Of a stretch of 42,820 bases of DNA, positions 34,116 to 42,820 are shown in pieces. Below the pieces are notes generated by a model. That model saw only the letters and a list, made by a program, of their open reading frames with translations. It made no database searches and was not told where the DNA came from. This DNA comes from Clostridia bacterium (lineage in GTDB: Bacteria; Bacillota; Clostridia; Oscillospirales; Acutalibacteraceae). Positions within the stretch are counted from its first letter, which is position 1, and every line of letters begins with the position of its first letter. The DNA lies in NCBI GenBank assembly GCA_017631355.1, contig JAGBTL010000210.1, forward strand, positions 1-42,820. The letters run 5' to 3'. Made by a program: the position numbers and the translations under genes.

Positions 34116-34145
34116 CAAAGCACAATTTTATTGGAGGACATTTTT

Positions 34146-34937
34146 ATGAAAAAGATTGTTTCTATTTGCGCAGTTATTCTTTCTGTTGCGTTGCTCGTTA
34201 CAGCCTTTTCTGCTTGTGGTAAAAAGGGTGAAGGCACAACCGATGCAACAACACAAGCTCCCGTTGCTGACGGCGAATACAGCATTGACATCACTGCAGC
34301 AAACGCAGTTGTTAAAAAGGGCGATGCAGTTTTTCAGGAGCTTTCATATCCCAACGGTATCGGCTATGAGTTTGATTTAGCCTATGCTAAGGAGCATTAT
34401 GAATTTATTGATATGAACTTTGACGGCAATCTTGACCTTTACATTGCGGTAAGCAAGGTTGATAACGTGATAAATTACTATTGTTGGCTTTACAATGCTT
34501 CAGCAAACAAGTTTGACTTCTCGGCTTCTCTTTCAGCACTCAAGAACATTTCTGTTGATTCTTACGAGCAGCTTGTTTTGTCAAAAACATACTATAACGG
34601 TATTGAAAAGGTTTCAACCTATCAGTGGGTTGACGGTGTGCTTCAGCTTAAGGACGTTTACGGTGATGAGGGCGTAACAATTCCTCAGGACGTTGTTCAG
34701 TCATACAATGACAACACAATCGGTGAGGTTTCCAATAGCGAAAAGGCTACAACAACCAAGGCTACAACTCAGTCACAGGCAACGTCTTCAACATCAGCAC
34801 AGGGTTCAAACGGCGGCGCTTCTGAAAATAAGACAACTACCGCTCCCAAAACAACCAAGCCCTTGCTTACAACTACAACACCCGCTAATGGTATTGAGCT
34901 TGTAACAGGTGACCCTGAAGGCGACGAGTGGTATTAA
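34146..34937 (+). CDS. Hypothetical lipoprotein with Ser/Thr-rich C-terminal linker
   Basis: GGAGG (34133-34137) precedes ATG 34146. The signal peptide MKKIVSICAVILSVALLVTAFSACGKK carries a lipobox. The C-terminal region is low-complexity and T/S/A-rich. Confidence 0.7.
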   Translation: MKKIVSICAVILSVALLVTAFSACGKKGEGTTDATTQAPVADGEYSIDITAANAVVKKGDAVFQELSYPNGIGYEFDLAYAKEHYEFIDMNFDGNLDLYIAVSKVDNVINYYCWLYNASANKFDFSASLSALKNISVDSYEQLVLSKTYYNGIEKVSTYQWVDGVLQLKDVYGDEGVTIPQDVVQSYNDNTIGEVSNSEKATTTKATTQSQATSSTSAQGSNGGASENKTTTAPKTTKPLLTTTTPANGIELVTGDPEGDEWY

Positions 34938-34950
34938 TAAGGAGAATATA

Positions 34951-35355
34951 ATGGAAAAAGAAATTTTGAATTCACAGAATGAATTTGCGGAAGCAACCGA
35001 AAACACTCCTGTTGTTGAGAACGAGGCATTCTATGCTGAAGGCGATTCACAGGCAGCAGCCGAGGAAAACAAGCAGACCGATGCGAAATTGTTTGATTTT
35101 AAGTTCTTCCGCAGCTGTTCAGCTTCACTCAAGAAGTTTTCTGTCATAGTTTTCGTAATCAATATCTTCATTTCAGTTGGCATTACAGGTGCGGTAACCG
35201 TGCTCCTTGCAGTCAATCTCGGTGCACAGATGCTTTCATTGCTTGCATTGCCTATTGTTACGTTGTTTATTATTCTCATTATTCTTTCAAGATTTGCTTC
35301 AGCGCTCATTTATGGCTTTGCAGAAATTGTAGAAAAAGCTGAGAAAAACCAATAA
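34951..35355 (+). CDS. Hypothetical membrane protein (acidic N-terminus, two C-terminal TM helices)
   Basis: AAGGAG (34939-34944) precedes ATG 34951. TM segments are VIVFVINIFISVGITGAVTVLLAV and LLALPIVTLFIILIILS. Confidence 0.55.
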   Translation: MEKEILNSQNEFAEATENTPVVENEAFYAEGDSQAAAEENKQTDAKLFDFKFFRSCSASLKKFSVIVFVINIFISVGITGAVTVLLAVNLGAQMLSLLALPIVTLFIILIILSRFASALIYGFAEIVEKAEKNQ

Positions 35356-35370
35356 AATAAAATATTCCTA

Positions 35371-35399
35371 TTGACAAACGCAATTCGTAGGAGTAGTAT
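35371..35399 (+). promoter_or_regulatory. Candidate promoter of the aromatic operon leader
   Basis: TTGACA (35371-35376), a 17-nt spacer, then TAGTAT (35394-35399). It would start transcription ~25 nt upstream of the leader ORF. Confidence 0.5.
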
Positions 35400-35431
35400 A
35401 CTAAGCATAATTTTTCAGAAAGGTGATACAG

Positions 35432-35509
35432 ATGAACAGAAACTTTAGTTATCGATTTTATTACTTTACTAAAACGGATTGTCTGTGTGCCTTTCGCGAG
35501 TGCAAGTAA
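35432..35509 (+). CDS. Candidate Phe/Tyr-rich leader peptide of the aromatic amino-acid operon (25 aa: MNRNFSYRFYYFTKTDCLCAFRECK)
   Basis: My own translation, because the ORF is below the track cutoff. SD AGGTGA is at 35421-35426, ATG at 35432 and TAA at 35507-35509. Six of the eight codons at 35444-35467 are TTT/TAT/TAC. It lies between a predicted promoter and an intrinsic terminator. Confidence 0.55.
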   Translation: MNRNFSYRFYYFTKTDCLCAFRECK

Positions 35510-35533
35510 TTGCACCCGATAGTGTGAATAGTC

Positions 35534-35585
35534 AGTCCGCATTCTGCTATGCTTTTAGTGTATCGGTTTGCGGACTTTTATTTTT
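35534..35585 (+). terminator. Intrinsic terminator within the aromatic-operon leader (attenuator terminator)
   Basis: AGTCCGCA (35534-35541) pairs perfectly with TGCGGACT (35569-35576), followed directly by TTTaTTTTT (35577-35585). The loop is large (27 nt). It ends 20 nt before ATG 35606. Confidence 0.65.
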
Positions 35586-35605
35586 AGTGAACAAGGAGTT
35601 AATTT

Positions 35606-36793
35606 ATGATTTCATCAAAAATGCTTGAATTAGGTAAAAAGAGCTCTGTTATACGTGAGATTTTTGAATATGGTCTTAAGCGTAAAGCAGAAATTGGCGC
35701 AGAAAACGTTTATGATTTTAGTCTTGGCAATCCAAGCGTTCCCGCACCTGCAAAGGTAACCGAGGTTATGAAAAAGCTTATTGACGAAACACCTGCCGAG
35801 GTGCTTCATGGCTATACCTCTGCACCCGGTGACGTTAAGGTACGTACCGCTATTGCTGAGAATATCAAAGCAAAATTCGGCGTTGATGCATCTCTTGCTA
35901 ACATATATATGACCTGTGGTGCAGCGGCATCACTTACAATTACACTCAATGCAATTGTTGAGGAGGGTGATGAGGTTATTGCCTTTGCACCATTCTTCCC
36001 AGAATACAGGGTTTTCGTTGAGCAGGCGGGCGCGAAGCTTGTTGTTGTAAGCAACAAGACTGAGGATTTGCAGCTTGACTTTGATGCTATTGAAAAGGCA
36101 ATCACTCCCAACACCAAGGCAGTTATTATCAATTCTCCCAACAACCCCTCAGGAGTTATTGTTCCCGAGGAGGATATCAAAAAGCTTTGTCAGCTTCTTA
36201 AAAGCAAGCAGAGTGAATATGGTAAGGAGATTTTCCTTATCTCCGACGAGCCTTACAGAGAGCTTGTTTTCACAGGGGAGAAGGTTGCATATATTCCTTG
36301 CTATTACGATAATGCAATTGTTTGCTATTCTTACAGTAAGGCACTTTCGCTTCCCGGTGAGCGCATCGGCTACATTTTCGTTGCTCCCACAGTAAAGGAC
36401 AGCGGTGACGTGTTTGCAGCAATTTGCGGCTCAGGCAGAGCACTTGGCTACGTTTGTGCACCAAGCCTTATGCAGTACACAATTGCGCAGTGCCTTAACG
36501 ATACTGCAGACGTTTCAATTTATGAGAAGAACAGAAACCTTCTCTACGATGCACTTACAGAAATCGGCTATACAGTTATCAAGCCTGACGGTGCATTTTA
36601 TATGTTCGTTAAATCTCTTGAGGAGGATGCAAATGCATTCTACGAGAGAGCAAAAAAGTTTGATTTGCTTATTGTTCCAAGCGACAGCTTCGGTGTACCG
36701 GGCTTTGTAAGAATTTCATATTGTGTGGACACTTCACTTATTGAGCGTTCACTTCCTGCATTCAAATCACTTTACGAGGACTATCAGAAATGA
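35606..36793 (+). CDS. Class I PLP-dependent aminotransferase (aspartate/aromatic aminotransferase)
   Basis: Blocks NPSVPAP, INSPNNPSG and SYSKALSLPGERIGY (PLP-Lys ... R). It is the first gene of the aro/phe operon, which suggests a phenylpyruvate/4-hydroxyphenylpyruvate transaminase role. Confidence 0.85.
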   Translation: MISSKMLELGKKSSVIREIFEYGLKRKAEIGAENVYDFSLGNPSVPAPAKVTEVMKKLIDETPAEVLHGYTSAPGDVKVRTAIAENIKAKFGVDASLANIYMTCGAAASLTITLNAIVEEGDEVIAFAPFFPEYRVFVEQAGAKLVVVSNKTEDLQLDFDAIEKAITPNTKAVIINSPNNPSGVIVPEEDIKKLCQLLKSKQSEYGKEIFLISDEPYRELVFTGEKVAYIPCYYDNAIVCYSYSKALSLPGERIGYIFVAPTVKDSGDVFAAICGSGRALGYVCAPSLMQYTIAQCLNDTADVSIYEKNRNLLYDALTEIGYTVIKPDGAFYMFVKSLEEDANAFYERAKKFDLLIVPSDSFGVPGFVRISYCVDTSLIERSLPAFKSLYEDYQK

Positions 36794-37878
36794 TTGATTA
36801 TACAGAAAAATTTCACGAGGCACGAAAGGCTATCGGTGAAATTGATAAGGAAATAGCGATTCTTTTTGAAAAAAGAATGAAGGCTGTTGAGGACGTTGCC
36901 GCATATAAAAGGGTGAACGGAATTCCTGTTGAGGACCCCGTCCGCGAAGCGCAGCTCATTGAAGAAAGCAGTATGCTTGTTGATAACGATAAAATCCGTT
37001 CATATTACGTGAACTTCCTCAAAACTACAATGAGGCTTTCCAAGGAATATCAGCACAAGCTTATTGATGGTACACGCGCCGCGTTCGCAGGCGTAAAGGG
37101 CGCCTTTGCTGAAAATGCTGTGAAAAAATTCTTTCCTGATTGTGTTCCTGTACCTTGTCAGGATTTTAAGGCTGCTTATAAATCCGTTGAAAACGGTGAG
37201 TGTGAAATAGCTGTTTTACCCATTGAAAACAGCTATGAGGGTGACGTTGCAAGGGTTATGGATTTAACCTACTTCGGCTCACTTTATATAAACGGTGTTT
37301 ATGATATGTCCATTGAACAGCACCTTTTCGGCACACCCGATGCCGACCCCAAATCAATAAAAACGGTTATCAGCCATCCTCAGGCACTCGGTCAATGCGC
37401 CGAGTTTATTGAGGAAAAGGGCTACGAAATAAAGGAAGCAGTCAATACAGCGGTTGCGGCACAGCTTGTCCGTGATAGCGGTGACAGCTCCTTGGGCGTT
37501 ATCTGTTCAATTGAAGCAGGTCACGAATACGGACTTAAGCTCATTGACCGCAAAATAAACAAGGATAGCACAAATATAACTCGTTTTGCAGTGTTTTCAC
37601 GTGTTCCCCGCGATTGCTCGGAAGATCAGAACAACTTTATCATCCTTTTTACCGTTCGCGATGAGGCAGGCTCACTCGGCAAAGCACTTTCTGTTTTCAG
37701 CGAGTACGGCTACAATCTTAAGGCGCTTAAGAGCCGTCCCTCCAAGGATGTTATGTGGAACTATTATTTCTTCCTTGAGGGTGAGGGACACCTTACGCCT
37801 GAGGTTGAGCGTGATATGGAGGAAAAGCTATCAAAGGTTTGTACCAACGTTCGCGTTGTAGGTAAATATGCCGGATAA
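36790..37878 (+). CDS. pheA: Bifunctional chorismate mutase / prephenate dehydratase (P-protein) with ACT domain
   Basis: N-terminal AroQ-class chorismate mutase helix (IDKEIAILFEKRMKAVEDVAAYK), a prephenate dehydratase domain (AFAGVKGAFAE ... NITRFAVF = TRF motif) and an ACT domain (GSLGKALSVFSEYGYNLKALKSRPS). The ATGA overlaps the upstream stop. Confidence 0.9.
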   Translation: MIDYTEKFHEARKAIGEIDKEIAILFEKRMKAVEDVAAYKRVNGIPVEDPVREAQLIEESSMLVDNDKIRSYYVNFLKTTMRLSKEYQHKLIDGTRAAFAGVKGAFAENAVKKFFPDCVPVPCQDFKAAYKSVENGECEIAVLPIENSYEGDVARVMDLTYFGSLYINGVYDMSIEQHLFGTPDADPKSIKTVISHPQALGQCAEFIEEKGYEIKEAVNTAVAAQLVRDSGDSSLGVICSIEAGHEYGLKLIDRKINKDSTNITRFAVFSRVPRDCSEDQNNFIILFTVRDEAGSLGKALSVFSEYGYNLKALKSRPSKDVMWNYYFFLEGEGHLTPEVERDMEEKLSKVCTNVRVVGKYAG

Positions 37879-37895
37879 GGGGACAATGAATTTCT

Positions 37896-38909
37896 ATGGT
37901 TCTGAATGTTAAAACCCAAACAGATAATTACAATATAATTCTTCAGCGTGGCGCAATTAACCGTGTGGCAGAATTTTATGATACAGCTAAAAAAGCGCTT
38001 ATTGTAACTGATAGCGGCGTTCCGTTTGAATATGCCAAGACGGTTTCAGCACAGTTCAGCAACAGTATAATCAAGGTGATTCCTCAGGGCGAAAAAAGCA
38101 AGTGCTTTGACGTTTATAAGGATCTTCTTGAGGCTCTTTGTGAAAACGAGTTTTCACGCTCTGATTGTGTTGTTGCAGTTGGTGGCGGAGTTGTAGGTGA
38201 TTTGTCGGGCTTCTGCGCTTCTACCTATATGAGAGGTATTGATTTTGTGAATATCCCCACAACTGTGCTTTCACAGGTTGATTCCTCAATCGGTGGCAAA
38301 ACAGCTATTGATTTTTCGGGGTATAAAAACATTGTGGGCGCATTTTATCCGCCCAAGGTTGTTATAATTGACTCCGACGTTCTTAAAACTCTGCCCCAAA
38401 GGCACATAAACAACGGCCTTGTTGAAAGCATTAAAATGGCTGCAGCCTGTGACAAGGATTTGTTTGAATTTATGGAAAACAATGACCTTTATGAAAACGT
38501 TGATAAGGTTATTGAGGGCTCTCTAAGAATCAAAAAATATATTGTGGAGGAAGATGAAAAGGAGCAGGGGCTTCGCAAGGTGCTTAATTTCGGTCACACA
38601 GCGGCTCACGCTATTGAAACGGCGACCGGGCTTGGTGATTTGCTTCACGGTGAGTGTGTTGCTATCGGTATGCTTGCTTTTTCATCACCTTCAGTCAGAG
38701 CGCGCTTAACATCACTTCTAAAAAAATACAATCTTCCTACTGAATTTGATTTTGTGGGAGATACCATTCTTGAAGCACTCCGTCACGATAAAAAGAGTGC
38801 AGGCGACGGTGTTAACGTCGTTTATGTAAATGAAATCGGCTCGTTTGAGTTTAAGTTTTTAGATTTTAATCAGCTTGATGATGCAGTAAAGGGGGCGTAC
38901 CTTAAATGA
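37896..38909 (+). CDS. aroB: 3-dehydroquinate synthase
   Basis: GGGVVGDLSGFCASTYMRGIDFVNIPTT, DSSIGGKT, NFGHTAAHAIE and HGECVAIGM. Confidence 0.9.
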   Translation: MVLNVKTQTDNYNIILQRGAINRVAEFYDTAKKALIVTDSGVPFEYAKTVSAQFSNSIIKVIPQGEKSKCFDVYKDLLEALCENEFSRSDCVVAVGGGVVGDLSGFCASTYMRGIDFVNIPTTVLSQVDSSIGGKTAIDFSGYKNIVGAFYPPKVVIIDSDVLKTLPQRHINNGLVESIKMAAACDKDLFEFMENNDLYENVDKVIEGSLRIKKYIVEEDEKEQGLRKVLNFGHTAAHAIETATGLGDLLHGECVAIGMLAFSSPSVRARLTSLLKKYNLPTEFDFVGDTILEALRHDKKSAGDGVNVVYVNEIGSFEFKFLDFNQLDDAVKGAYLK

Positions 38910-40000
38910 AAAACACCTTTGGTAATAACGTGAGCATTACACTTTTCGGTGAAAGCCACGGAGAAGCAATCGGTGCAGTTGTTGACGGCCTTCCTGCAGG
39001 CATTGCTGTTGATGAGGGCTTCATTGCTTCACAGCTTACGCTCCGTCGTCCTGTGGGTGCAATTTCCACACCTCGTGCAGAAAAGGATGCCTTTACCATC
39101 GTCAGCGGATGCTTTAACGGCAAAACAACAGGCACACCTCTCTGTATTATCATTCCCAATGAAAATACACAGTCAAAGGACTATTCTGCAACCTACGGCA
39201 AGGCAAGACCGGGTCACGCGGATTTCACCGCCTTTTCCAAATATAACGGCTGCGAGGACTATCGCGGCGGCGGTCATTTCAGCGGCAGGGTTACTGCAGG
39301 TCTTGTTGCAGCAGGCGCAGTTGCTATTGACTTGCTGAAAAAGAAAAATATATTCATCGGCACTCATATTCTTAATTGCGGCGGAGTAAATGACGTTGAA
39401 TTCAAGGATTACGAAAACGAAATAAAAGCAATTTCAACAAAGGCTTTTTCTGTTATTGATGATTCTGCAGGGGAGCAGATGATTAAAAAAATCAAGGCGG
39501 CTGCCACAGAGGGCGACAGCGTTGGCGGCGTTCTTCAGACTGCAGTTGTGGGCTTGCCTGTTGGTGTTGGTGAGCCTTGGTTTGATTCGCTTGAAGGTGT
39601 GATTTCTCACGGACTTTTCTCAATTCCCGGTATCAAGGGTGTTGAGTTTGGCATCGGCTTCGGTTGTGCTCAGCTTTTGGGCAGCGAAATGAACGATGAG
39701 TATTATTACGATAATGGCACAGTTAAAACCGCCACAAATAACAATGGCGGCATAAACGGCGGTATATCAAACGGTATGCCTGTTTTGTTCAATTGTGCAG
39801 TAAAGCCTACGCCCTCAATTGCAAAAGAACAAAATACTATTGATTTCGTGAATGACGAAAATACAACACTTGCCACAAGGGGCAGACACGACCCTTGTAT
39901 TGTACATAGGGCAAGGGTTGTTGTGGACAGCATAACCGCACTTGCTGTTTGTGATATGCTTTCACAGAAATTCGGTACAGATTGGCTTGGTGAAGGCTGA
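38906..40000 (+). CDS. aroC: Chorismate synthase
   Basis: FGESHGEAIGAVVDGLPAG, RPGHADF, GGGHFSGR and the GRHDPC motif. Confidence 0.95.
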   Translation: MKNTFGNNVSITLFGESHGEAIGAVVDGLPAGIAVDEGFIASQLTLRRPVGAISTPRAEKDAFTIVSGCFNGKTTGTPLCIIIPNENTQSKDYSATYGKARPGHADFTAFSKYNGCEDYRGGGHFSGRVTAGLVAAGAVAIDLLKKKNIFIGTHILNCGGVNDVEFKDYENEIKAISTKAFSVIDDSAGEQMIKKIKAAATEGDSVGGVLQTAVVGLPVGVGEPWFDSLEGVISHGLFSIPGIKGVEFGIGFGCAQLLGSEMNDEYYYDNGTVKTATNNNGGINGGISNGMPVLFNCAVKPTPSIAKEQNTIDFVNDENTTLATRGRHDPCIVHRARVVVDSITALAVCDMLSQKFGTDWLGEG

Positions 40001-41250
40001 TGGAATACGGTTGTATAGGTGAGCACCTTACTCATAGCTTTTCAAAAGAGATACATAATGCGCTTACTGGTTATGACTATTGCATTCAGGAGTTAACACC
40101 CGAGGAATTGCCACAGTTTATGACAGAGCGCAATTTTAAGGCGATAAACGTTACCATACCATATAAGAAGGATGTTATACCTTATCTGGAGTGGATTTCA
40201 CCTGAGGCAAAGACAATAAATGCAGTCAATACAATCGTAAATATTGATGGCAAATTATATGGTTATAATACAGATTTTTACGGCTTGAAATCTCTCGTTG
40301 AGCGTCAGGGAGTAAGTCTTTCGGGTAAATGTGTTGCCATTCTTGGCAGCGGTGGTACGTCTAACACCGCGTTTGCCGTTTCTAATGCTATGGGGGCGGA
40401 AAAGGTGCTTAAGGTGTCACGTAAAGCAAGTGACGGTTATATTACCTACGATGAGCTTTATAGCGTGGCAGATGAGGTTGAAGTAATCATCAACACAACA
40501 CCCTGCGGTATGTACCCCCACATCGGCACCTCTGCCGTTGACGTTACACGTTTTACAAAGCTTACTGCGGTTTTTGATGCAGTTTACAATCCGCTTGCTT
40601 CAAAGCTTGTTTGCGATGCAAGGCAGATGGGGGTTATTGCAACAGGCGGACTTTATATGCTTGTTTCACAGGCAGCCTATGCAGTTGAAAAATTCATTGA
40701 TGCCCCTGTTGATAGTCAGGCAGTTGAAAGGATTTATAGCGATTTATATAAATCCAAAATGAATATAGTTCTTGTGGGAATGCCATCCTGTGGCAAAACT
40801 ACCATAGGCAAAGCCCTTGCAGAAAAACTCGGCAAAGCCTTTACGGATACAGATGAGCGCATTGCTCAGCTTGACGGACGCAATATTCCAACTATTTTTG
40901 CCGAGGATGGAGAAGCAGCCTTCCGCAAGAAGGAGTGCGAAGCCGTTTTTGACGTCGCAAAAGCCACGGCAACAGTTGTTGCAACAGGCGGAGGAGCCGT
41001 GCTGAACAAAGCAAACGTGGATATACTCAAGGAAAACGGCAGAATTTATTTTATAGACAGACCCTTAGAGCAGCTTGTCACAACAGGGGACAGACCCTTG
41101 TCAAGCAACAGAGCTGACCTTGAAAAAAGGTATAATGAACGCTATCCCATTTACACCGCCTGTGCAGACGTTATTATTGACGGCTCGGGCACGGTCAGTG
41201 AGGTAGTAAAAAGAATCGAGGCGGATTATTACGGATATACTTGTAATTAA
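40000..41250 (+). CDS. aroE/aroK: Fused shikimate dehydrogenase (N-terminal ~250 aa) / shikimate kinase (C-terminal ~165 aa)
   Basis: AroE blocks are GCIGEHLTHSFSKEIHN, NVTIPYK, YNTDFYG and GSGGTSNTA. AroK blocks are the P-loop VGMPSCGKTTIGKALA, DTDERI, GEAAFRKKE and ATGGGAV. It is a single uninterrupted 416-codon frame. Confidence 0.9.
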   Translation: MEYGCIGEHLTHSFSKEIHNALTGYDYCIQELTPEELPQFMTERNFKAINVTIPYKKDVIPYLEWISPEAKTINAVNTIVNIDGKLYGYNTDFYGLKSLVERQGVSLSGKCVAILGSGGTSNTAFAVSNAMGAEKVLKVSRKASDGYITYDELYSVADEVEVIINTTPCGMYPHIGTSAVDVTRFTKLTAVFDAVYNPLASKLVCDARQMGVIATGGLYMLVSQAAYAVEKFIDAPVDSQAVERIYSDLYKSKMNIVLVGMPSCGKTTIGKALAEKLGKAFTDTDERIAQLDGRNIPTIFAEDGEAAFRKKECEAVFDVAKATATVVATGGGAVLNKANVDILKENGRIYFIDRPLEQLVTTGDRPLSSNRADLEKRYNERYPIYTACADVIIDGSGTVSEVVKRIEADYYGYTCN

Positions 41251-41266
41251 CGGACCAAACCTTAAT

Positions 41267-41665
41267 ATGCTGGGCATTCGTGAGCCCGACATATACGGCA
41301 AGGAAACCTATAATTCACTTGTTGAAAAAATTGAAAGCTACGCCCACGAAAAGGGTGTGTATGTGAATTGCTATCAGTCAAATCACGAGGGTGACCTTGT
41401 AGATGCCATTCAGTTTGCTTACGGCAGATTTCAGGGCATTGTCATTAACCCCGGTGCATATACTCACACAAGCATTGCAATTCTTGATGCAGTTAAGGCG
41501 GTAGGTATTCCCACAGTTGAGGTGCATATTTCTGATGTTGATTCACGTGAGGATTTCAGAAGAGTAAGCTATATCAGACAGGCTTGCTTTAAAACAATCA
41601 GCGGCGAGGGTACCGATGGTTATCTTCACGCTATTGATTGCATAATTGAGAAGGTGGCAGAATGA
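41267..41665 (+). CDS. aroQ: Type II 3-dehydroquinate dehydratase (minimal ORF from the first ATG; the true start is probably upstream at ~41225-41237, see findings)
   Basis: LGIREPDIYG, QSNHEGDLVD, INPGAYTHTSIA and EVHISD blocks. The conserved N-terminal ILVINGPNLN is encoded in the same frame immediately upstream (41237-41266) but without an ATG/GTG/TTG. Confidence 0.85.
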   Translation: MLGIREPDIYGKETYNSLVEKIESYAHEKGVYVNCYQSNHEGDLVDAIQFAYGRFQGIVINPGAYTHTSIAILDAVKAVGIPTVEVHISDVDSREDFRRVSYIRQACFKTISGEGTDGYLHAIDCIIEKVAE

Positions 41666-42820
41666 ACGTAGCTATTACACCTTCTGTTGCCAAAGGCTCT
41701 GTAACACCGCCACCCTCAAAGAGCTACGCTCACAGGCTCCTTGTCTGTGCAGCACTTTCAAGAGGCGAAAGCATTATTGAAAATATCGGCACTAACGATG
41801 ATATTCTCGCAACGGCTGATTGTCTGCGAAATATGGGTGCAGATATAAAGCTTGACGGCACAACTGCTACTGTTAAAGGTATCGGACTAAATAAAATGGC
41901 AGATAGAATAAGCCTTTTCTGTAACGAAAGCGGAAGCACCTTGCGTTTCCTTATTCCGTTGTCGCTTGTTTTTTCAAAAAAGGCAACGTTCAGCGGCAAG
42001 GGCAGACTTATGGAGCGTCCACAGACAGTTTATGAGGAGCTTTTTACAGCAAAGGGCTGCTCTGTTGAAAAATCAGACGGCAAAATGACAGTAAGCGGTC
42101 AGCTTCACAGCGGTTTGTATGAGGTTGCAGGGGATGTAAGCAGTCAGTTTATAACAGGCTTGCTTTTTGCCTTGCCCCTGCTTTCAGGCGATAGTGAAAT
42201 TCACCTTACAACACCCTTACAGAGCGCACCGTATATTGATATTACCATTGACGTGCTTTCACGCTTTGGTGTTGAAGTTAAAGCTACCGATTACGGCTAT
42301 TTTATAAAGGGCTTACAGACCTACACCGCCCACAACGAGGTGTGCGAGGGCGACTGGTCAAATGCCGCGTTCCTTGATGGCTTTAACCTTGCAGGCGGTA
42401 GCGTTGAGCTTGAAAATATGAGCCTTGAAAGTAAGCAGGGGGATATGATTTATAGGGATTATTTCCGTCAGCTCAATGATGGCGCGCCTGTGCTTGATAT
42501 AACCCAATGCCCCGATTTGGGTCCCGTTCTTATTGCTTGTGCAGTCCTTAAAAATGGTGCAAGGCTTATAGGCACAAATCGCCTTAAAATCAAGGAGAGC
42601 GACAGGGGACAGGCTATGGCACAGGAGCTTTTAAAGCTCGGTGTTGATCTGGAAAACGGTGATGATTATATAATCATTCCCAAGTGTGAAATTAAAGCGT
42701 CAACAGAAAATATTTACTGTCACAATGACCACCGTATTGCTATGAGCTTTGCTCTGCTTTGTAGTGTTGTAGGTGGCACTTTAGAGGGCGCAGAATGCGT
42801 AAACAAAAGCTATCCCGAGT
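41662..42820 (+). CDS. aroA: 3-phosphoshikimate 1-carboxyvinyltransferase (EPSP synthase), 3'-truncated by the window edge
   Basis: Not in the ORF track, because no stop falls inside the window. My own translation from ATG 41662 (overlapping the aroQ TGA) gives MNVAITPSVAKGSVTPPPSKSYAHRLLVCAALS... It contains NESGSTLRFLIP, DVSSQFITGLLFALPL, IKESDRG and NDHRIAMSFAL. Confidence 0.9.
   Translation, partial: MNVAITPSVAKGSVTPPPSKSYAHRLLVCAALSRGESIIENIGTNDDILATADCLRNMGADIKLDGTTATVKGIGLNKMADRISLFCNESGSTLRFLIPLSLVFSKKATFSGKGRLMERPQTVYEELFTAKGCSVEKSDGKMTVSGQLHSGLYEVAGDVSSQFITGLLFALPLLSGDSEIHLTTPLQSAPYIDITIDVLSRFGVEVKATDYGYFIKGLQTYTAHNEVCEGDWSNAAFLDGFNLAGGSVELENMSLESKQGDMIYRDYFRQLNDGAPVLDITQCPDLGPVLIACAVLKNGARLIGTNRLKIKESDRGQAMAQELLKLGVDLENGDDYIIIPKCEIKASTENIYCHNDHRIAMSFALLCSVVGGTLEGAECVNKSYPE

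Follow-up and report, generated by a model that had tools for sequence, protein, structure and literature searches.

A probable phenylalanine/tyrosine leader-peptide attenuator upstream of the aminotransferase-pheA-aro operon in Clostridia

The DNA described here is a 42,820-nt stretch from a bacterium of the class Clostridia (contig JAGBTL010000210.1); 'the window' below means this whole stretch at its full length (42.8 kb). The leader that precedes its aminotransferase-pheA-aro operon is very probably a transcription attenuator of the ribosome-mediated (leader-peptide) type, which controls the operon by sensing charged tRNA-Phe and tRNA-Tyr. An earlier note, made from the sequence alone, had proposed attenuation of the Escherichia coli pheL type, and every test that can be computed favours it: the open reading frame (ORF) and its codons are conserved, there is a terminator with an overlapping antiterminator, and no rival RNA family is present. 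On this modelling, attenuation is strongly supported in silico. The leader combines an ORF led by a Shine-Dalgarno sequence (SD), cognate codons enriched in one conserved frame, an intrinsic terminator and an antiterminator that overlaps it. The coordinates of all features are given in Table 1.

Relatives were collected in an aminotransferase scan with one genome per species, which gave 80 loci (58-96% protein identity), mostly from metagenome-assembled genomes of Acutalibacteraceae (Clostridia). An nhmmer profile of the leader matches 73 of these loci and has a single match in the window. Seventy of the related leaders make up alignment A1, and an nhmmer profile of A1 separates members cleanly from non-members. 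All 70 aligned leaders keep an ATG ORF and an AGG, GAGG or GGAGG motif, so the aromatic mini-ORF that the earlier note had asked to be sought upstream of orthologous operons is conserved throughout this set.

The leader ORFs are 18-25 codons long and encode 63 distinct peptides, but the aromatic codons persist: the best eight codons hold five to seven Phe or Tyr codons in 66 of the 70 leaders and four in the remaining four. The most conserved part of the regulatory codons is an F-Y-Y core (35456-35464), whose columns 10-12 in the A1 peptide alignment are 100%, 100% and 99% aromatic with swaps between Phe and Tyr among species. Columns 2, 5, 7, 8 and 13 are also mostly aromatic, with Phe/Tyr exchange and variation between TTT and TTC and between TAT and TAC. 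Trp codons are absent from every aligned leader ORF. Between the ATG and a downstream GGAYTGYC block, Phe and Tyr codons account for 48% of codons in frame versus 14% and 17% in the other two frames, where stops occur in 24 and 60 of 69 sequences. The background in the genes of the window is 4.5% Phe and 4.0% Tyr (together 8.5%). The distance from the ATG to this block is 35, 38, 41 or 44 nt, all in one frame, in 68 of 69 leaders, and indels are therefore multiples of three. The frame is kept even in leaders with a relocated start codon (L021, L026, L029 and L071-74).

Such an ORF is rarely expected by chance. In the whole window only two short ATG ORFs reach six aromatic codons in eight, and the leader ORF is the sole one to bear an SD; first-order Markov simulations predict 0.31 ORFs of this kind per window, falling to 0.02 when an SD-like motif is required. 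The other is a 32-codon ATG ORF on the minus strand (35408-35310), which is probably a chance occurrence because it has no SD and sits in the AT-rich promoter region. A search across the window for further mini-ORFs with runs of one amino acid gave none that was convincing.

The leader folds better than 200 of 200 shuffled sequences (z = -3.56), and the complete leader of the window, free of ribosomes, folds as two helices, P1 and P2, followed by the terminator (-53.4 kcal/mol). The SD, the AUG and most of the 5' strand of the antiterminator lie within P1, and the regulatory codons form its loop. Across the 70 species P1 is 79% paired, and some of its pairs have changed on both sides (GC to AU, CG to UA); RNAalifold found the core of P1 and the terminator without guidance. 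P2 is 79-88% paired with compensatory changes (for example GCAA/TTGC to GTAA/TTAC). A P2 hairpin of the GCAA type is present in 59 of the 70 leaders and in all 59 a TAA or TGA stop lies in or at its loop, which fits a role for P2 in where the ribosome parks. The outer stem of the terminator is 99.6% paired, with CG to UA changes in 11 species, GC to AU changes in two and other changes as well; its inner hairpin shows CG to UA changes in 21 species. The T-run is invariant and in the window ends 20 nt 5' of the operon ATG (35606). A simple terminator scan missed this terminator because its 'loop' is a nested hairpin of more than 8 nt. P1, P2 and the terminator taken together are 87.6% paired in the 70 species versus 30-52% in slid controls, there are 21 pairs with double changes, and none of 500 shuffles matched any of these measures.

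The antiterminator is a 12-bp helix that in the window contains one U-U mismatch; in 31 of 70 relatives a U-A pair is kept at this position and all 12 pairs are intact. It is 92% paired in the 70 species versus 18-42% in slid controls. The earlier note had listed three pairings that might compete with the terminator. One of these, CGGATTG (35475-35481) with CAGTCCG (35533-35539), is the core of the antiterminator. The other two, CCGATA with TATCGG (49% paired) and AAGCATA with TATGCTT (62% paired), did no better than controls and were discarded.

These elements suggest how the switch may work. Transcription would begin at about 35406, and a ribosome would load on the strong SD and AUG as they emerge and translate the 25-codon leader. 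With Phe or Tyr scarce, the ribosome would stall in the Phe/Tyr codons (35444-35467) with its footprint ending just 5' of 35475. Sitting in the P1 loop it would block closure of P1, and the free 35475-35486 strand would capture the newly made 35528-35539; with six of the eight bases in the 5' strand of the terminator taken up by the antiterminator, RNA polymerase would then read through into the operon. With ample Phe and Tyr, the ribosome would run on over 35475-35495 as far as the stop codon in the loop of P2 and there separate the antiterminator strands, so that the terminator (35534-35576) and its T-run would form and transcription would end. If no ribosome had loaded, or after its release, P1 would form and hide the SD, the AUG and the 5' strand of the antiterminator, leading to termination; the default state would be OFF. 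Stalling at the Phe/Tyr codons, blocking of P1 by a ribosome in its loop and a rise in read-through on starvation are thus what the model predicts.

Folding with a stalled ribosome and with a ribosome at the stop codon, a comparison proposed in the earlier note, gave the antiterminator in the first case and the terminator in the second. To model the stalled ribosome, everything 5' of a point 13 nt beyond the A site was cut away and the nascent RNA was taken as far as the terminator 3' strand. In every one of the 70 species, the minimum free energy (MFE) structure then holds at least nine of the 12 pairs of the antiterminator. On average the antiterminator state costs just 2.9 kcal/mol more than the terminator state, and in 13 of the 70 species it is as stable as the terminator-state optimum (ddG 0). 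For a ribosome at the stop codon, the footprint (about 35492-35520) lies between the antiterminator strands, and the RNA 3' of it folds into the terminator.

The distribution of the leader follows that of the operon. In 72 of the 80 related loci the aminotransferase gene is followed by pheA and aroB. Where pheA and aroB do not follow, the leader of L015 is reduced to a remnant of the terminator (2407-2477), with an unrelated large ORF after it; in L052 the leader ORF has decayed to MAGSKDF* (2276-2436) and a gene for an FGGY sugar kinase lies 3' of it; L066 and L077-80 have no leader. The L051 locus is interrupted by the end of its contig. The aminotransferase gene of Clostridium niameyense (L207) lies outside any aro operon and again has no leader. 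The leader is therefore truncated, decayed or absent where the pheA-aro genes no longer follow the aminotransferase. A pattern scan of metagenomes (GGATTGTCTG-N30-60-CAGTCCGCA) was too permissive: of the 120 stretches returned, 113 are chance matches from unrelated environments and seven are genuine leaders by nhmmer. All seven precede the same aminotransferase, and no second member of the regulon was found in this small sample. Between the terminator and the aminotransferase start codon, two related loci carry an insertion of about 290 nt (L024, 2212-2500; L030, 2215-2500), and L002 and L004 carry one of about 45 nt with the hairpin GTATCTGATTCGGATAC just 5' of position 2501.

A second type of leader, with different hairpins, is found upstream of the same operon (in the order aminotransferase-pheA-aroB-aroC) in four loci: L075 (2225-2500), L201 (2215-2500), L202 (2245-2500) and L203 (2250-2500), which make up alignment A2. 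These type-II leaders also contain ORFs rich in Phe and Tyr (MKKMYYSYFRFYYYAASL, MNNLYYYAMRFYYYTASL, MNNVFYFTMRFYYYAFSIVRQAV and MATVYYYAMRFYYYAVSSNGHTVSA), and they have two hairpins with T-runs. By sequence complementarity, the segment GCAGAATGC of the first hairpin could pair with GCATTCTGC, which lies in the 3' strand of the second; this pairing is a candidate for the type-II antiterminator. A second architecture with the same codon bias is predicted by selection on the codons and not by selection on one fold. Other relatives have no leader ORF. L204 (1770-2500) and L208 (1777-2500) have a divergent gene of the TetR family and GTTAAC-type palindromes beside the promoter, which suggests that a protein repressor has replaced the attenuator there. 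L205 and L206 have a short 5' untranslated region and no leader.

T-box riboswitches and TRAP are the usual RNA regulators of the aromatic pathway in the Bacillota. The earlier note saw no T-box in this leader, and scans against Rfam agree. With cmscan and Rfam 15 there were no matches at the gathering threshold in the whole window, only four spurious ones at E<=10 in 35300-35700 (three snoRNA families and one lncRNA family), and only tRNAs, with no regulatory RNA, in 14 divergent related loci where an alternative T-box was sought. The T-box (RF00230) was rejected since its model matches nothing in the window, the leader or the 14 divergent relatives, and the T-box core (GGTGG or TGGNACC) is absent from 35400-35605. 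A TRAP array, which would have about 9-11 (G/U)AG triplets 2-3 nt apart, was rejected as there are seven scattered GAG or TAG triplets and the longest correctly spaced run is one. Membership of the Phe_leader (RF01859) or Leu/phe leader (RF01743) families was rejected because neither covariance model matches at the gathering threshold or at E<=10. An arrest peptide of the TnaC type that senses a free amino acid was also rejected; stalling on abundant Phe or Tyr would turn a biosynthetic operon on, the reverse of the sign required.

Three other explanations of the leader were weighed. In one, it is a riboregulator that works without translation: a metabolite (Phe, Tyr or prephenate), an uncharged tRNA or an RNA-binding protein would bind the conserved, single-stranded P1-loop block AUCGAUUUUAUUA or the invariant bases of the terminator and decide between P1 with the terminator and the antiterminator, the ORF being tolerated and not the sensor. 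The block CGATTTTATTA, which contains CGA, is nearly invariant, synonymous sites included, in 65 of 70 type-I and four of four type-II leaders, the terminator bases GCATTCTGCTATG (35539-35551, interior loop and inner hairpin) are nearly invariant in the 70 species, and sequestration of the SD and AUG by P1 is what would be expected of a structured leader that is not translated. We nevertheless consider this explanation unlikely. Neither an Rfam family nor a T-box core or TRAP array was found, and the P1 loop has neither a conserved pairing partner nor a complex fold of the kind seen in aptamers. The frame is kept through indels and start relocations, its Phe/Tyr enrichment is confined to one frame, and the other aromatic positions show Phe/Tyr and synonymous swaps. 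Additionally, L071-74 and L069 are without the CGA and the exact block, yet keep runs such as YFYFYFF. In another explanation, the attenuator does depend on the ribosome but reports general translation capacity (slow elongation, decoding of CGA, or stalling under antibiotics or stress), or merely sets a constitutive low level of read-through. A rare CGA codon is conserved directly in the stall region, the sequestered SD and AUG would make the efficiency of initiation itself a determinant, and leaders that sense stalled ribosomes, of the ermC-like and ABCF types, are common in the Bacillota (PMC2965389, PMC8632094). This too is improbable: the enriched codons are specifically those for Phe and Tyr, the products of the pathway that the operon encodes; where the aro genes have left the locus, the leader has decayed or gone; and the same codon bias is kept in the second RNA architecture.

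The third explanation, a functional Cys-rich micropeptide (D-C-L-C...C-K) with an ordinary partial terminator between two genes, is very improbable. In the C-terminal half of the peptide alignment D17, C18 and L19 are 97-100% conserved and C20 and C25 mostly so, as it would require. The codons of the Cys motif, however, fall exactly on the P1/antiterminator strand GGATTGTCTGTG and on the TGCAA of the P2 stem, and a Cys becomes Tyr where its P2 partner co-varies (L023, L044 and L051). Because this conservation coincides with the helices and changes when they co-vary, it is a constraint on the RNA and not on the peptide. Leaders of the L055 type stop before the Cys region (…DCLCAE*), the C-terminus is variable in a peptide of 18-25 residues, and the type-II leaders are without the Cys motif.

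Several points weigh against the Phe/Tyr attenuator itself. The block CGATTTTATTA and its rare CGA are more conserved than selection for aromatic codons or simple pairing needs: CGA makes up just 5% of Arg codons in the genes of the window, yet it occupies column 9 of the A1 peptide alignment in 65 of 70 leaders. Conservation beyond what base pairing alone requires is likewise seen in the terminator bases GCATTCTGCTATG, and the excess in both places leaves room for a rare-codon brake or for an extra contact with RNA or protein. The strands of the antiterminator are almost invariant, with mostly one-sided changes (UG/CG/UA) and two double changes, so its covariation is weak and its support lies in conserved complementarity and one-sided changes; weak covariation is to be expected of strands that each have to pair with two alternative partners. 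In the window leader, even without P1, forcing the antiterminator costs 3.7 kcal/mol relative to the terminator state, and read-through would therefore need kinetic control. Since P1 hides the SD and AUG, the ribosome must load within about 45-60 nt of transcription (from the AUG to 35479-35495). In Bacillus subtilis, according to the account of Johnson et al. (2020) in the review PMC7858274, transcription outruns translation. A polymerase that outruns the ribosomes would make coupling hard unless it pauses, and no pause site for RNA polymerase could be identified in the leader. Finally, we infer both the translation of the leader ORF and its response to the supply of Phe and Tyr.

Table 1. 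Positions of the leader elements and of the genes of the operon in the window
Feature	Position	Strand	Description	Basis
Promoter	35371-35399	+	sigma-70 type; TTGACA, 17-nt spacer, TAGTAT	promoter scan, 10/12 matches
P1 helix (anti-antiterminator)	35418-35495	+	35418-35424 with 35489-35495; 35426-35435 with 35479-35488	MFE structure
Leader SD	35419-35426	+	AAAGGTGA; AGGTGA at 35421-35426, 6 nt 5' of ATG	read from sequence
Leader ORF	35432-35509	+	25 codons and TAA; peptide MNRNFSYRFYYFTKTDCLCAFRECK	sequence
Regulatory codons	35444-35467	+	F-S-Y-R-F-Y-Y-F (TTT AGT TAT CGA TTT TAT TAC TTT); 6/8 Phe or Tyr	sequence
Rare Arg codon	35453-35455	+	CGA directly 5' of the F-Y-Y core	present in 65/70 leaders
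Antiterminator	35475-35539	+	12-bp helix, CGGATTGTCTGT (35475-35486) with ATAGTCAGTCCG (35528-35539); overlaps 6/8 bases of the terminator 5' strand	
P2 hairpin	35497-35518	+	GTGCAA-GTAA-TTGCAC (35500-35515) and two outer pairs; leader TAA (35507-35509) in loop	
Intrinsic terminator	35534-35585	+	8-bp outer stem AGTCCGCA (35534-35541)/TGCGGACT (35569-35576), inner hairpin 35544-35566, T-run TTTTATTTTT to 35585	ViennaRNA, -20.9 kcal/mol
Regulated operon	35606-42820	+	genes from the aminotransferase to aroA	Pfam
Aminotransferase gene	35606-36793	+	class I/II aminotransferase; first gene of the operon	Pfam
pheA	36790-37878	+	chorismate mutase/prephenate dehydratase (CM_2+PDT+ACT)	Pfam
aroB	37896-38909	+	DHQ synthase	Pfam
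aroC	38906-40000	+	chorismate synthase	Pfam
aroE-aroK fusion	40000-41250	+	one ORF; shikimate dehydrogenase N-terminal domain and shikimate kinase domain	Pfam
aroQ	41267-41665	+	type II dehydroquinase	Pfam
aroA	41662 to beyond window end	+	EPSP synthase	Pfam

The promoter, SD, 25-codon ORF, aromatic codons, hairpin with the stop in its loop, terminator and T-run were all found where the earlier note had placed them, and Pfam agrees with the operon content it had read (an aminotransferase, chorismate mutase/prephenate dehydratase and shikimate-pathway genes). The transcription start is predicted at about 35406-35407. TTGACA is kept in 61 of the 70 related leaders, and in 61 of the 70 there is a -10 box (TAAAAT, TATAAT, TAGAAT or TAGTAT) ending 29-36 nt 5' of the leader ATG. 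No gene for DAHP synthase or prephenate dehydrogenase is visible in the portion of the operon within the window. The ORFs 5' of the leader (34909-35355 and 34131-34937) have no Pfam match. The first of these, directly 5' of the leader, encodes 148 aa and its synteny is kept in 67 related loci; its product looks like a small membrane protein.

The closest parallel is pheL-pheA of E. coli and other gamma-proteobacteria (RF01859; PMC3082878). In both, an SD-led ORF rich in codons for the end product precedes a gene for chorismate mutase/prephenate dehydratase, and in both there are mutually exclusive antiterminator and terminator hairpins with a T-run, switched ON by ribosome stalling (as we infer it here). 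In contrast with pheL, the leader described here is from Clostridia (Bacillota), has no similarity to it in sequence or covariance model, mixes Phe and Tyr codons where pheL has runs of Phe only, and precedes a long aminotransferase-pheA-aroBCEKQA operon and not pheA alone. Additionally, P1 is formed from the SD/AUG region with the codons in its loop, whereas region 1 of pheL overlaps the codons, and the stop codon lies in the loop of a conserved hairpin.

The earlier note had called such an attenuator unusual for a Firmicute. This holds only in part: leader-peptide attenuators have already been described in the Bacillota, for His, Leu and Leu/phe, together with a Phe upstream ORF (uORF) in Acholeplasma. 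The Leu/phe leader of Lactococcus lactis (RF01743) is presented as a leader element in the description by Weinberg et al. (2010; PMC2864571). It has an RNA architecture different from that of our leader, which does not match it even at E<=10. To our knowledge RF01743 is restricted to L. lactis, and we know of no Tyr codons in it. The element uORFC-13-1, upstream of aroF in Acholeplasma, has been proposed to respond to how fast Phe is incorporated (Brewer et al., 2021; PMC8632094). Like our leader, it is a candidate uORF with a promoter, ribosome-binding site, start codon, U-rich Phe codon or codons and an adjoining intrinsic terminator, next to a shikimate-pathway gene in a lineage related to the Bacillota. 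By its published description it differs in gene (aroF, for DAHP synthase), in taxon and in having 'at least one' Phe codon versus the five to nine Phe/Tyr codons here, and unlike our leader it is described with no antiterminator or SD-sequestering helix. If Rfam 15 includes a model of this motif, that model gave no match here. Leader-peptide attenuators for His are found in the his operons of the Bacillus cereus group, Peptostreptococcaceae and Erysipelotrichales (PMC9413887, PMC2965389), and one for Leu in the ilv-leu operon of Staphylococcus aureus has experimental support (PMC5794164). These use classical leader-peptide attenuation in place of T-boxes, as proposed for our leader, and differ from it in amino acid, operon and sequence. 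T-box and TRAP systems also choose between terminator and antiterminator in a 5' leader that reports aminoacylation or amino acid status; the proposed sensor here is a translating ribosome and not the binding of tRNA or TRAP. The literature searched yielded no account of a leader with Phe/Tyr codons ahead of a pheA-aro operon in Clostridia. Leaders that respond to several amino acids are textbook cases (for example Thr and Ile, or Leu, Val and Ile), and mixed Phe and Tyr codons therefore extend a known principle.

Taken together, the leader is supported in silico as a well-conserved case of a textbook mechanism with individual features, namely an anti-antiterminator that contains the SD and AUG, a stop codon placed in the loop of a hairpin, a conserved CGA and two architectures. 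More tentatively, and with some doubt on our part, the leaders may form an undescribed and widespread family of attenuators with dual specificity (Phe and Tyr) in uncultured gut and rumen Clostridia, in the Acutalibacteraceae and their neighbours. Such a family would have at least two RNA architectures that share CGA-UUU-UAU-UA(U/C); its anti-antiterminator would be the leader's own SD/start-codon helix, and the CGA would be a built-in brake that positions or slows the ribosome before the sensing codons. With that helix as anti-antiterminator, initiation and elongation at the Phe/Tyr codons would both gate read-through.

The analysis provides a testable regulatory annotation for the aromatic operon of a large uncultured group of gut and rumen Clostridia in which no T-box, TRAP site or known riboswitch was found there, and extends the few classical leader-peptide attenuators known in the Bacillota by one for Phe/Tyr. 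The 70-species alignment could seed an Rfam-type model, which would spare the mini-ORF the label 'hypothetical protein' or neglect. Since the same operon is under other controls in related lineages (the second leader type, a divergent TetR-family gene, or no leader), it is a compact example of regulatory turnover. The SD-sequestering P1 and the rare CGA pose the question of how ribosome loading is timed against RNA polymerase in a phylum where coupling is thought to be weak. If the family of dual specificity is real, it would imply that transcription and translation are tightly coupled at the leader, in a phylum whose runaway transcription is considered unfavourable to such a mechanism.

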